Below, piece after piece: positions 15,023 to 48,835 of a stretch of DNA of 64,000 nucleotides (the first letter of the stretch is position 1; every line of letters begins with the position of its first letter). A program made the position numbers and the translations under genes. Source of the DNA: Methanocellales archaeon (GTDB lineage Archaea; Halobacteriota; UBA148; JAUWXC01); the NCBI GenBank assembly GCA_030018435.1, contig JASEEY010000001.1, positions 11,038 through 75,037 of the forward strand. Direction: 5' to 3'. A model generated the notes under the pieces. It searched no databases. It worked only from the letters and a program-made list of their open reading frames with translations, and had not been told where the DNA came from.

Positions 15023-15529
15023 ATGAAGAAGAAAAGAAGAAGCCCGTTTGACATATTCGGTGAGGACTGGCCTGATATATTTGGCGATGATTTTTACGAG
15101 AGATGGAAGAATTTGATAGAGAGAATGATGTCAGGAGAATTGGAAGGACCTGGTATCTATGGGTTCTCTGTGACAAGCCGACCAGGAGAGGAGCCGGAGA
15201 TTAGGGAGTTCGGAAATATACGCCCCTATGCTGGTGACATTGAGATAGGCGAACGCCGCCCCATCGTTGACGTGTTCGAATCAGATGAGGAGGTACAAGT
15301 GGTAGCGGAAATGCCAGGCGTCGAGAAAGATGACATCAAATTAGATGCAACCGAGACTTCGTTGGATATCAGCGCCAAAACGAGAGACAGGGAGTATTCT
15401 GAGCGCGTAGCCCTTCCGGCAAGAGTGGATCCCAACTCGGCAAAAGCCAGCTACAAGAACGGTGTGCTTGAAGTAATTCTCATGCGGGTTGAACCAAAAG
15501 AGAAGAGGCCCCCCATCAAAGTGGAGTGA
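15023..15529 (+). CDS. hsp20: small heat shock protein Hsp20 (alpha-crystallin domain)
   Basis: [19 protein letters not shown]...NGVLEVIL is the alpha-crystallin core. 18 nt downstream of cdc48 with a GAGGAGGA RBS. Confidence 0.85.
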
Positions 15530-15561
15530 GAGCTCACTTTTTCTTTTTTGCTGACATTAAA

Positions 15562-15790
15562 TAGCGGGGAGTGGATTTGAACCACTGATCTACGGGTATC
15601 CCACGATTTTCGAAAGGGGCGATCGTTTAGTACACTGCTTCAGGTGCACTTTCTTTTTTTGTATTTATAATCATAGTACTGTTGAATGAAGCGAATGTAG
15701 CACATTTTGACTAAATTGTTTTTGATCAACCTTTTTCTTAAAAAGGTTGGTTATGAGCCCGTCGGGATCTCCTGACTACCCCACCCCGCT
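15562..15790 (-). tRNA. tRNA-Met(CAU), initiator-like (A1:U72, three G:C pairs in the anticodon stem), with intron of about 154 nt (15598-15751) at 37/38
   Basis: Hand-folded from the reverse complement. 5' exon: AGCGGGGUGGGGUAGUCAGGAGAUCCCGACGGGCUCAUA. 3' exon: ACCCGUAGAUCAGUGGUUCAAAUCCACUCCCCGCU-A. Anticodon stem ACGGG/CCCGU, loop CUCAUAA, GGUUCAAAUCC T-loop. Confidence 0.7.
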
Positions 15791-15811
15791 ATGGTGTTAT
15801 ATAAGCCACAT

Positions 15812-16120
15812 CTATGTCTTGATGCTCTCTCGTTTGCTCAGCGTTGCCTGAATCTCGTCCAGCAACTCGTCCTCGGTCTTACCCTCGGTGGCAATGCCAA
15901 GCTCCTCTGCCATCTTTATTACCTTGCCTTTCTTCGCTCCCTTTGGTGCAGCTTCTAGGGATCGTTCAAACTCGCTCAATTCTTTCTCAGCTTCTCTCTG
16001 CGCCTTCTTGAACTCACCCATGGATTTGCCTACCGAGCGAGCCAGCTCTGGCAACTTCGACGCTCCAAAGAGGAGGATGATGATTACGCCTATGATCATT
16101 ATCTCATTTGGACCGATCAT
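15812..16120 (-). CDS. tatA: Tat translocase TatA/E-family protein
   Basis: N-terminal TM helix MIGPNEIMIIGVIIILLFGASKLPE followed by an amphipathic helix and an acidic tail. Confidence 0.85.
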   Translation of the reverse strand: MIGPNEIMIIGVIIILLFGASKLPELARSVGKSMGEFKKAQREAEKELSEFERSLEAAPKGAKKGKVIKMAEELGIATEGKTEDELLDEIQATLSKRESIKT

Positions 16121-16157: not shown

Positions 16158-16466
16158 TTAAACGTTCTGTTCCTCGGCTCGCTTCCTCAACTCTTTTTGA
16201 ATCTCATCCAGCAGTTCATCGTCAGTCTTGCCCTCGGTTTTGATTTTCAACTCCTCGGCCACCCTCTTTATCCTATCAACTTCCCCTTTTTCGGCCGCCC
16301 TCTTGGAGTACTGGAACTCGCTTAACTCGTACTCCGCTTCTTTCTGCGCCTTCTTGAACTCACCCATCGCCTTACCCATCGCCCTTGCCATCTCTGGTAG
16401 TTTATCTGTACCGAACAGCAGCAGTATTATTACAAATATCAGCAGTGTCTCCGTTGGTCCTATCAT
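16158..16466 (-). CDS. tatA: Tat translocase TatA/E-family protein (tandem paralog)
   Basis: MIGPTETLLIFVIILLLFGTDKLPEMARAMGKAMGEFKKAQKE has the same architecture as 15812-16120. Confidence 0.85.
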   Translation of the reverse strand: MIGPTETLLIFVIILLLFGTDKLPEMARAMGKAMGEFKKAQKEAEYELSEFQYSKRAAEKGEVDRIKRVAEELKIKTEGKTDDELLDEIQKELRKRAEEQNV

Positions 16467-29667: not shown

Positions 29668-29791
29668 TAGCCCGGCACGGATTCGAACCGCGGTCACAAG
29701 GTATCTCCCCTTTCTTCCGTCAACGCTTTTGCGCGAAGCGGAAAAGGGTTGGTCCAGAGCCTTGTATGATTGACCACTACACCACCGGGCT
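29668..29791 (-). tRNA. tRNA-Gln(CUG) with 51-nt intron (29703-29753) at 37/38
   Basis: Reverse complement, 5' exon: AGCCCGGUGGUGUAGUGGUCAAUCAUACAAGGCUCUGG. 3' exon: ACCUUGUGACCGCGGUUCGAAUCCGUGCCGGGCU-A. Anticodon stem CAAGG/CCUUG. Confidence 0.75.
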
Positions 29792-41841: not shown

Positions 41842-41971
41842 AGCCTCGGGAGGGATTTGAACCCTCGACCTAGTGATATCTTGCAACCGTCCTACCGAAG
41901 GTGGACAAACGATCAACCCTTTTGAGAGTTGCTACAAGTCACTCGCTCTAGCCAGACTGAGCCACCGAGGC
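41842..41971 (-). tRNA. tRNA-Thr(UGU) with 55-nt intron (41878-41932) at 37/38
   Basis: Reverse complement, 5' exon: GCCUCGGUGGCUCAGUCUGGCUAGAGCGAGUGACUUGUA. 3' exon: AUCACUAGGUCGAGGGUUCAAAUCCCUCCCGAGGC-U. Anticodon stem AGUGA/UCACU. Confidence 0.75.
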
Positions 41972-45095: not shown

Positions 45096-46232
45096 TTACC
45101 ACAGCTCCCCGTTGAGGACAGACATGGTCTTGTCGTTTGTGCTCTGGTAGAGTCGCTTGATTTTGACCAGGTAACCCCCATCCACTTTTTCTGGTTCTTC
45201 AAATACAGCGTCAATGCCCATCCTATTCAGATGAGCTTCAAATTCTCGCGCCGTCTCTAAATATTTGACCTTGATCTGAACATTCTCACCGATTTGTTCA
45301 CCTCTTTTCCTGCTCTTGATTGTATACACCATCGGCTTCAGAATGCTCTCCCCAAGCTGCAGGCATCTTTCTCTTAACTCTTCCTCAGACTCATTCCACT
45401 CAACAGCCTGAAATCCTTCGCGTACAATTCTCGTGAAAAAGAATGGTCTTCCATAGTCGTTGTAAAACCTGAAACCATCTCTAAGGTCGCCACAGTTGCT
45501 CTGGGAACTCGTGTATTTGATGGGCGGTATCTTCGTCTGAGGATCCTTGATGACGATGCCTTCATGATTTTGTCTGCCAAGCTCCTTTACAATTTCCCTC
45601 GCTGCCGCACTCGCCTCGTTCACAGGATATTCGCCGAATATGCGCACCGATTTTATATTGTATTCCTCCACCAATCTCAGTCGCTGTGCTATTGGCAGAG
45701 AGGCGCCGGAGGCCTTCTTCTTGATGTCAAACAGAAAGAAGTCCAGTGAAGGAATGTCGTAGATGTCTTTTGGTACATACGGATTGTCCGGACCCACCAT
45801 CTCGCCGCAAAGAACCAAATCAGGATTATCCTTGAAAAATGCATCTCCGATTATGTCTCTTGCCTTCTCGGTGGTGTACGGGCAGACCAGTCCGCCCCTT
45901 GTGAGCCCAAAGATTTCCCCACCGATAGAGGCAATCCTCACGTTATACCCGTTCATCTTCTCTTCTATCATCACAGTAGGACAATCAAAATGGCGTTTAA
46001 TCGTCGGATCGAGTATCATCGCCCTTCTGATCTTCGGGAATCCCCTCACAATATCGATTTTCTCGTGAACGAATATCGCCGTTCCATTCTCGATGGCGCC
46101 ACACTCTTTGTCGAACCTAAACAAGTGTGGATGCTCCCCTTCCACCTCTTTGATAATTCCTCTGTCAATCAATTCGCGCAGTTGAGCACTGGGTATGTTA
46201 AGCTTCTCCGCAATCTCCTCAATCATCTCCAC
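45096..46232 (-). CDS. ATP-dependent RNA ligase (archaeal Rnl3/Pab1020-like)
   Basis: KMNGYNVR is the KxNG nucleotidyltransferase motif I. 378 aa in the layout of the archaeal homodimeric RNA ligase family. Confidence 0.7.
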   Translation of the reverse strand: MEMIEEIAEKLNIPSAQLRELIDRGIIKEVEGEHPHLFRFDKECGAIENGTAIFVHEKIDIVRGFPKIRRAMILDPTIKRHFDCPTVMIEEKMNGYNVRIASIGGEIFGLTRGGLVCPYTTEKARDIIGDAFFKDNPDLVLCGEMVGPDNPYVPKDIYDIPSLDFFLFDIKKKASGASLPIAQRLRLVEEYNIKSVRIFGEYPVNEASAAAREIVKELGRQNHEGIVIKDPQTKIPPIKYTSSQSNCGDLRDGFRFYNDYGRPFFFTRIVREGFQAVEWNESEEELRERCLQLGESILKPMVYTIKSRKRGEQIGENVQIKVKYLETAREFEAHLNRMGIDAVFEEPEKVDGGYLVKIKRLYQSTNDKTMSVLNGELW

Positions 46233-47895: not shown

Positions 47896-48835
47896 GTAAT
47901 GCCCGTAAGATGTCCCTCTCGGTGAGTATGCCCATTAGAAAGCCGTCATCAATGACCGGCAGCGATCCCACCTTTTTATCCATCATGAGTTTGGCGGCAT
48001 CGCCTAAGTCTACATCGGAGGTTGTGGTGACGACATTGGGCACCATAATCGTCTTAATTGCGGGCTCTAACGCCTCCTGAATGTGTCCAGTAACCAGTTT
48101 GTCAAATGCTTTTCCTCCGCCAAGATATTTCACGATGTCGGTGGCGGTGACGATCCCCAGCAACACATCATCTCTTATAACTGGTAGTCTCCTAAATCCG
48201 TTGGAAACCATCGTTTTGGCAGCCTCCCCTATGGAGATGTCGGGCGGTGTGGTTACCACCCTTCTGCTCATGTAATCCCCTACAATCTTTCCAGTTTTCA
48301 CATCGGCAATCAGATATGCAAAATCGCTTTCGGAAATGATGCCTACAACCCTATGCCTATCATCCACAATGGGTAGCCCACCTATATTCTGTATAAGCAT
48401 CGTGTTCAGCGCGTCCTCTAATGACTGGCGATCGCTCAGCGTTATCACATCGACTTCCATGATCTCCCGGACGTCTCCGTTGATTGCAGCAAGCAGGTTC
48501 CCACCATATCTCTTTTTGACTAAATTGTGTCGTTCGCCGCCTCCCAAGAAATCAATCAAATCAACGCTCGTGATAATCCCAACAAGCCTATTCGTGCCCG
48601 GGTCTGCAACGGGGACCTTCCTTAAGCCATATGTCATCATCGTTTTTATTGCCCCCATAATCGTCATGGTCGGCGGAATCTTGATCACTTCTCTAGATGC
48701 AATCGTCATCACATCGCCTGGGCGTGATGATATACGGGATTTGAATTCCACCGGCCCCCTGTCGAGCACAGCTTCGCTCGCATCGTTTGCGAGTCTTGCA
48801 CCCCTTTTTATCCCATTATGGCGTCTTCTCATCAC
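47885..48835 (-). CDS. CBS-domain protein (4 CBS)
   Basis: Tandem CBS repeats. Confidence 0.8.
   Translation of the reverse strand: MMRRRHNGIKRGARLANDASEAVLDRGPVEFKSRISSRPGDVMTIASREVIKIPPTMTIMGAIKTMMTYGLRKVPVADPGTNRLVGIITSVDLIDFLGGGERHNLVKKRYGGNLLAAINGDVREIMEVDVITLSDRQSLEDALNTMLIQNIGGLPIVDDRHRVVGIISESDFAYLIADVKTGKIVGDYMSRRVVTTPPDISIGEAAKTMVSNGFRRLPVIRDDVLLGIVTATDIVKYLGGGKAFDKLVTGHIQEALEPAIKTIMVPNVVTTTSDVDLGDAAKLMMDKKVGSLPVIDDGFLMGILTERDILRALRET

Follow-up and report, generated by a model that had tools for sequence, protein, structure and literature searches.

A 154-nt canonical-position intron with a hypervariable interior in an initiator tRNA-Met gene of a Methanocellales-type archaeon

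Archaeal tRNA introns are generally short, spanning 11–129 nt with medians of 12–25 nt in a 2014 review (PMC4090602). What, then, is a 154-nt insert in the anticodon loop of an initiator tRNA gene, and is there more to it than its removal? The case lies in a 64,000-nt stretch of contig JASEEY010000001.1 (positions 11,038 to 75,037; Methanocellales archaeon, assembly GCA_030018435.1); sequencing run SRR23186780 contains an identical contig. We call this whole stretch the window, and coordinates are those of the window unless a related locus (an L number) is named. An initial annotation, made from the letters of the window, had read positions 15562–15790 as an initiator-like tRNA-Met(CAU) gene holding an intron of about 154 nt, with a perfect 9-bp hairpin and with elements resembling those of box C/D guide RNAs. 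We conclude with good confidence that this is a functional initiator tRNA-Met gene of an uncultured Methanocellales-type archaeon, interrupted between nucleotides 37 and 38 by a protein-spliced bulge-helix-bulge intron. The intron is an unusually long member of the ordinary canonical class of archaeal tRNA introns, and neither of the tRNA-Trp C/D type nor a group I intron.

The gene and its parts are as follows.

15562..15790, minus strand: initiator tRNA-Met(CAU) gene including its intron, 229 nt, with A1 at 15790 and the discriminator A73 at 15562 (ARAGORN in intron mode, exon identity, Rfam)
15752..15790, minus strand: exon 1, 39 nt, positions 1–37, with the anticodon CAU at 15755–15753 (exact 39-nt match in 42 genome stretches)
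15598..15751, minus strand: intron, 154 nt, between nucleotides 37 and 38 (ARAGORN in intron mode, intronless orthologues)
15562..15597, minus strand: exon 2, 36 nt, positions 38–73 (identical to L021, L031 and L040, all intronless orthologues, over their 3′ halves)

Read 5′ to 3′ on the minus strand, AGCGGGGUGGGGUAGUCAGGAGAUCCCGACGGGCUCAUA is exon 1; the 154-nt intron follows, and then ACCCGUAGAUCAGUGGUUCAAAUCCACUCCCCGCUA, exon 2. G+C content is 34% in the intron as against 59% in the exons. With introns allowed, ARAGORN calls tRNA-Met(cat) at c[15561,15791], with a 154-nt intron and the junction 'tcata-Intron-acccg'. The gene at 15562–15790 is reported neither by ARAGORN at its default setting nor by the Rfam tRNA model at gathering threshold, so that genomes of the clade may seem to have no initiator tRNA. 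Once spliced, the resulting 75-mer is identical to the intronless tRNA of a related genome (L031), whose gene scores 63.2 bits (E = 8e-14) with Rfam RF00005; through this identity, removal of the intron gives a canonical cloverleaf. A1:U72, the anticodon CAU and the run G29–G31:C39–C41 (in the stem ACGGG/CCCGU), classical marks of archaeal initiator tRNAs, can all be read directly in the sequence. Because ARAGORN in intron mode, the identity to L031 and the initiator marks agree, the gene model of the initial annotation is correct, both in its A1:U72 and three G:C pairs and in an intron length that exceeds the 11–129 nt of the review (PMC4090602). CCA is not encoded, and a T-run lies 3′ of the discriminator.

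The splice junction is ambiguous from sequence alone, because ACC stands after both junctions; its register is fixed at 37/38 by a bulge-helix-bulge motif with the following parts.

15754..15757, minus strand: 5′ strand of the central 4-bp helix, C32 U33 C34 A35, which pairs with intron nt 152–149 (G G G U)
15600..15603, minus strand: 3′ strand of the central helix, UGGG, intron nt 149–152 (register alignment, shuffle scan)
15751..15753, minus strand: 5′ bulge, U36 A37 / A (intron nt 1), with predicted cleavage after A37 (3-4-3 geometry)
15597..15599, minus strand: 3′ bulge, A153 U154 / A38, with predicted cleavage after intron nt 154 (3-4-3 geometry)
15727..15749, minus strand: hairpin of 10 bp with loop AAG, intron nt 3–25 (constrained and minimum-free-energy folds, comparison of homologues)

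The central helix consists of C32:G152, U33·G151, C34:G150 and A35:U149, with the 5-bp anticodon stem as the outer helix h; archaeal endonucleases cut inside the bulges. ARAGORN leaves the exons where the initial annotation had placed them, and the 3-4-3 motif forms at the junctions proposed there. Across 11 distinct aligned introns the register pairs 96.7% of cells, compared with 30–66% when the 3′ partners are slid by 1–3 columns. In a pattern scan, the window and 8 of 10 relatives had a motif cutting exactly at both junctions, and the remaining two relatives had one central-helix mismatch; no such exact-junction motif appeared in 2000 shuffles of the window intron. The scan is a simple and lenient matcher that returns many spurious internal candidates, so it informs the question of exact junctions only. 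Forcing the central helix costs 0.9 kcal/mol over the minimum-free-energy fold constrained to the cloverleaf. Constrained folds were used in place of the unconstrained fold of the 229-nt precursor, which gave no cloverleaf and was uninformative.

Directly inside the 5′ splice site, AACCUUUUU-AAG-AAAAAGGUU forms a perfect hairpin (−9.8 kcal/mol); the 9 bp noted initially become 10 when C3:G25 is counted. A pair between the adjoining C2 (15750) and G148 (15604) is possible. A hairpin stands at this place, directly 3′ of the 5′ splice site, in all homologous introns, in one of three versions (CCUUUUU/AAAAAGG, CUUUU/AAAAG and GGGGC/GCCCC), and the 27-nt introns of L010 and L020 are essentially this hairpin plus CC/GG: ACCAACUUUUUAAGAAAAGGGCGAGAG. 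Because it keeps the same place in all homologues and makes up nearly the whole of a 27-nt intron, we read the hairpin, in a structural model, as acting as the inner helix h′ of the splice motif or stacking on it, with ∼122 nt looped out between G25 and G148. A reading of the hairpin as an H/ACA element was rejected by inspection: the duplex is perfect and has no pocket.

Together these parts suggest a route from precursor to mature tRNA. In the precursor the cloverleaf would form, and UGGG at the intron end would pair with C32–A35 as the 4-bp central helix, leaving U36-A37-A(i1) and A153-U154-A38 to bulge on opposite strands. The 10-bp hairpin after the 5′ site, together with C2:G148, would supply the inner helix, and the remaining ∼122 nt would be looped out. 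The tRNA splicing endonuclease would then cleave 3′ of A37 and of intron nt 154, the exons would be joined by a ligase of the RtcB type, and end trimming and post-transcriptional addition of CCA would complete the tRNA. The intron would probably be released, possibly as a circle. These enzymatic steps follow established archaeal tRNA splicing (reviews PMC4090602, PMC4033280). A scan of ∼29 window proteins turned up no tRNA splicing endonuclease gene. The rest of the intron would be a tolerated, fast-turnover array of locally folding hairpin modules, with constraint on the splice-proximal parts only.

How widely is the intron distributed? An exact search with exon 1, in one genome per species, returned 42 stretches, mostly from Methanocellales metagenome-assembled genomes (MAGs). 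Thirty-two were intronless, and 10 had an intron at the same site, of 197, 185, 198, 168, 161, 142, 123, 27, 27 and 11 nt. A metagenome scan with exon 1 plus RCCA yielded two extra loci only (introns of 197 and 158 nt), while contigs traced through homologues of TatA, encoded upstream, contributed introns of 111 nt (L047/L048), 197 nt (L049) and 88 nt (L059). In L051 and L052, both labelled 'Methanosarcinales archaeon Met12', the intron is at least 282–313 nt, a length that includes runs of N, and is broken by an assembly gap. The first-hairpin unit (CCAAACUUUUUAAUAAAAAGUUUGAACAAAAAACGAAA) stands there in tandem repeats (L051 1865–2177, L052 1865–2146), with an N run within the intron in both assemblies. 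Introns at the syntenic locus are thus of 27, 88, 111, 123, 142, 154, 158, 161, 168, 185, 197–198 and at least 282 nt. With introns allowed, ARAGORN reports tRNA-Met in every relative tested (all but the N-gapped L051 and L052); in L050 the tRNA has been lost from the locus. The relatives are MAG or metagenome contigs, and organism labels are those of the depositors.

The gene neighborhood of the tRNA is shared as well. Two tandem tatA genes lie upstream in the window.

15812..16120, minus strand: tatA, upstream neighbor of the tRNA (Pfam TatA_B_E), its stop ending 21 nt before the tRNA 5′ end
16158–16466: second tandem tatA

The order AIR-synthase-like gene, tatA, tatA, tRNA-iMet is found at all intron-bearing loci with upstream flank available except L027, and in most of them, as in the window, hsp20 and cdc48 come next on the opposite strand. 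TatA of intron-bearing relatives is 65–92% identical to that of the window, and the tblastn alignment of TatA stops 10–27 nt before the tRNA in relatives with flank available. In intronless Methanocellaceae, TatA has ∼50% identity and is farther off or not at that place. This shared gene order and TatA identity lead us to read the intron as the mark of a Methanocellales-related clade, throughout which the locus is orthologous. Within the spacer at 15791–15812, a TTATATAA box occupies −14 to −7 relative to the tRNA, too near for a promoter of the tRNA itself. Since the tatA stop is only 21 nt away and the box is too close, the tRNA is probably co-transcribed with tatA, or transcribed from a promoter inside it.

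One of the 27-nt loci, L020, is on a record labelled as a complete chromosome, and the exact exon-1 pattern occurs in it once, in the intron-bearing copy; splicing is therefore presumably essential there. The intron-bearing initiator tRNA is probably the only copy in the lineage. The L020 record (CP061209.1) is labelled as a complete 987-kb chromosome, very small for the group, of 'Methanosarcinales archaeon Met33H'; our literature searches found no paper mentioning strain 'Met33H'. The shortest intron belongs to L027 (3809–3894), a Methanocellales MAG locus without the tatA neighbor: its 11 nt (GCAGCAGGGAU) sit at 37/38 and end in GGGAU like the window intron. Three stretches (L009, L025 and L040) carry the exact archaeal initiator exon on contigs binned as bacteria (Acidiferrales and Actinomycetes MAGs), probably through binning contamination.

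Between its conserved ends the intron changes quickly. The variable part in the window is the following.

15615..15715, minus strand: hypervariable interior, intron nt 37–137, with nested helices (nt 39–44/79–84 and 49–53/72–76) and a hairpin (nt 102–123)

Intron nt 1–36 and 138–153 are identical between the window and L033, yet overall intron identity is 64% and BLAST detected no similarity between the two in the interior, even though the upstream flanks are 93% identical over the 72 nt available. L033 itself (142-nt intron) has flanks 88–94% identical to those of L010, where the intron is 27 nt. At L049, whose TatA is 88% identical to that of the window, an extra block of ∼100 nt of perfect palindromic hairpins follows directly on the first hairpin; the palindromes of this 197-nt intron (L049 1868–2064) are GUUCCAGAU/AUCUGGAAC, CGAAUC/GAUUCG and CCUUCCUUCUGC/GCAGAAGGGAAGG. 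Of the groups A, B and C among the relatives, group C has nothing but the splice-proximal ends in common with the other introns, and its interior is unrelated. For groups A and B, RNAalifold gave a single covarying pair out of 32, and by direct reading a putative helix GUGCUA/UAGCAC is not maintained, decaying without compensation in several members. Our reading of these comparisons is that the splice-proximal ends are constrained by the splice motif, while the interior is made of hairpin modules quickly gained, duplicated and lost. Local hairpins may be favored because they keep a long insert from disturbing the folding of the tRNA body.

Some smaller features of the interior were noted. In groups A and B (L002, L007, L008, L044, L011 and L012) an internal CUCAC mimics the anticodon loop CUCAU; being complementary to GUGAG at the intron 3′ end, it could compete with the central splice helix. 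A 21-codon open reading frame (ORF) in the window intron (15640–15705, minus strand; AUG at nt 47 to a UGA within CUGA) was rejected by inspection, its frame being unconserved in relatives. Intron nt 33–47 (ACAATTTAGTCAAAA) have a 15-nt exact same-sense match in a minus-strand ORF at 48514–48528, probably by chance (E = 0.04 in a small local database).

Does the interior house a box C/D small RNA (sRNA)? There is precedent in archaeal tRNA-Trp, whose intron nests a C/D RNA (PMC4090602), and the initial annotation had pointed to it. On this reading the intron would hold a guide for 2′-O-methylation of tRNA or rRNA. The strings it had picked out are present, in the order box C before box D.

15668..15674, minus strand: AUGAUUA, 'box C-like', intron nt 78–84, a chance match with one mismatch to RUGAUGA, not conserved
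15640..15643, minus strand: CUGA, 'box D-like', intron nt 109–112, a chance match in a hairpin loop, not conserved

The spacing given for them was not borne out: the spacer is 24 nt, with both strings internal, as against ∼12 nt in archaeal C/D guides. Nor are the strings unusual in such a sequence. Shuffled introns (which, here and for the fold z-scores below, keep mononucleotide content only) contained a one-mismatch box C in 34% of cases, CUGA in 39%, and both in order in 7.5%. None of nine homologous introns keeps both boxes, and CUGA is missing from eight and lies elsewhere in the ninth. The closest relatives follow suit: neither string is kept in L033, and L047 and L049, which came to light later, have AUAGUUA and CAGGAGUG at the equivalent positions. 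In the minimum-free-energy fold UGAUUA is paired with UAGUCA (nt 39–44), while the hairpin at nt 102–123 has CUGA in its loop. We found in the intron no terminal stem adjoining the boxes, no kink-turn arrangement, no C′/D′ pair and no further box matches. No antisense match of ≥8 nt connects the intron to the mature initiator tRNA or the tRNA-Glu of the window; the sole 8-nt antisense matches fall within the introns of the tRNA-Gln and tRNA-Thr genes. A permissive Rfam scan of 15450–15900 (E up to 10) matched no small nucleolar RNA or sRNA family and gave just two meaningless weak hits, to a Rickettsia rpsL leader and a baculovirus element. With the mature tRNAs of the window as the targets tested, the proposal of an intron-encoded C/D guide is close to refuted, and we reject it. 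What the intron has in common with that of tRNA-Trp(CCA) is its length, its canonical position and a euryarchaeal host tRNA. In tRNA-Trp, conserved C, D′, C′ and D boxes accompany guides for C34 and U39 (PMC4090602); nothing of the kind is present or conserved here.

Several observations nonetheless weigh against a plain bulge-helix-bulge intron with an idle interior. On the splicing side, the long-range part of the inner helix h′ in the window and L033 is a single pair (C2:G148) plus the stacked hairpin, compared with 2–6 bp in relatives of groups A–C, and in the nearest-neighbor model the strict fold with both flanking helices lies 5.2 kcal/mol above the constrained minimum for the window. 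Euryarchaeal endonucleases of the α4 and α2 types have been reported to need canonical motifs (PMC4033280), being described as strict on substrate shape, and against this the window version, with its minimal inner helix, is notable. The pairing of the motif offers no covariation evidence either, and none is expected in the central helix because its exon side never changes. On the side of the interior, a module of the form CAGAAAC..CCUUC...GAAGG, part of the extra block of L049, recurs in the distant groups A and B and is missing from the window; all introns fold better than their shuffles, with 3–7 hairpins each and z-scores from −2.3 (window) to −8.4 (L049, the most structured). Given such module retention and above-chance structure, the interior might yet have a function.

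That function could be of another, lineage-specific kind, with the hairpin modules as its units: a stable circular intron RNA, for instance, with a regulatory or protein-binding role. Besides the structure just described, this proposal can draw on an apparent base change from G:C to A:U (GCCUU/AAGGC vs ACCUU/AAGGU) in the module common to distant subgroups, and on the ability of archaeal and metazoan tRNA introns to persist as circles (PMC4536317). We nevertheless hold it to be improbable. Whole modules come and go among genomes with 88–94% identical flanks, down to an intron of 27 nt; beyond the splice-proximal ends no block is common to all subgroups; GUGCUA/UAGCAC decays without compensation in several members; and there is no Rfam match. 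From the sequences at hand, the interior contains no C/D guide, and no evidence of another trans-acting function was found; the interior probably lacks one. Alternatively, the intron or its modules may be a selfish proliferating element that spreads between tRNA genes of the lineage, as has been proposed in Thermoproteales, and grows by palindrome insertion or tandem duplication. The other tRNA introns of the window bear on this possibility.

29668–29791, minus strand: tRNA-Gln(CUG) with a 51-nt intron
41842–41971, minus strand: tRNA-Thr(UGU), whose 55-nt intron has a textbook splice motif: CUUG/CAAG, with UAG and AUA as bulges and CAAC/GUUG as inner helix

Of the four tRNA genes in the window, three have introns (51, 55 and 154 nt), all longer than the usual 12–25 nt. 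The tRNA-Gln intron starts with ACCAACCCUUUU, nearly like the ACCAACCUUUUU of the initiator intron, and GGUUGAUC is contained in both the tRNA-Thr and initiator introns. These shared motifs hint at related introns in different tRNAs, which selfish spread, if true, would explain. The tandem repeats of the first-hairpin unit at the assembly breaks of L051/L052 and the extra perfect palindromes of L049 also fit such an element. Against it, BLAST with six interiors found no second copy in the 64-kb window or in ∼45 related loci, direct reading revealed no terminal inverted repeats or target duplications around the interior, and the 5′ motifs in common are short and to some extent under constraint from the splice motif. 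We consider this origin unlikely, and it concerns where the intron came from and not how it is removed, so it is compatible with protein splicing at 37/38. There is likewise only a slim chance that the intron family is other than inert in either of these ways, as a circular regulatory RNA (coupling initiator supply to the co-transcribed tatA operon, for example) or as a proliferating selfish RNA or DNA element. Lastly, an unspliced insertion might have inactivated the initiator tRNA and left a pseudogene. The weak inner helix in the window would suit this idea, as would the failure of standard tRNA finders to report the gene. Yet both exons are without substitution relative to intronless orthologues, the intron 3′ end is complementary to the anticodon loop in all lineages, every lineage has the insertion exactly at 37/38, conservation of the locus extends over the whole clade, and the single exon-1 match in the clade's one complete chromosome bears the intron. 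A pseudogene is thus very improbable, and splicing of a functional precursor, presumably by the endonuclease and ligase named above, remains our preferred explanation.

How does such an intron compare with known systems? It resembles the canonical archaeal 37/38 introns, cut by EndA and joined by RtcB, in its site, 3-4-3 motif, single occurrence per gene and intact exons. It differs in length, which is 154 nt in the window and ranges from 27 to at least 282 nt across the family, against the 11–129 nt of the review (PMC4090602); in its host, the initiator tRNA of a Methanocellales-type euryarchaeon; in the modular and hypervariable nature of its interior; and in an inner helix that is mainly a local hairpin and not a long-range pairing. 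The intron proliferation or transposition proposed among Thermoproteales tRNA genes is similar in that several tRNA genes (three of four in the window) have introns sharing short motifs. Here, by contrast, the lineage is euryarchaeal, the introns seen all occupy the canonical position, one per gene, and intron relatedness rests on 8–12-nt motifs within the window only. Cyanobacterial initiator tRNA-fMet is also interrupted in the anticodon loop, by a group I intron, a self-splicing ribozyme of >200 nt. The 154-nt intron is too short for one and is bounded by a protein-recognized splice motif, and a permissive search with the group I core (Rfam RF00028) gave no match at E up to 10. As for the tRNA intronic circular RNAs (metazoan tricRNAs and circular archaeal introns), the initiator intron would presumably be circularized through the same cleavage and ligation chemistry.

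The mechanism is an ordinary one, and the value of the case is in description and annotation. We found no description of this intron family in the literature, with incomplete coverage; automated annotations may already list some of the genes. Introns of 154 nt, of 197–198 nt (fully sequenced) and of at least 282 nt (across a gap) exceed the quoted 11–129 nt (PMC4090602). The range from 27 to ∼200 nt and more among near-identical loci provides a natural series on how much RNA, and of what kind, is tolerated between the endonuclease sites, and on the persistence of long introns.

Three minor observations concern other parts of the window and its relatives. An exact search with the 36-nt exon 2 found no match in 2.9 million viral contigs, leaving a role of the tRNA gene as an attachment site unsupported. 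At 45096–46232 (minus strand) the window has a gene matching TIGR01209 (E = 2e-129), a family of archaeal RNA ligases that has been linked to RNA circularization; the gene is 30 kb from the tRNA, with no link shown. Downstream of the tRNA, called ORFs of 64 and 90 aa in two relatives (L047 2062–2256 and L055 2080–2352) belong to no Pfam family and are likely spurious.

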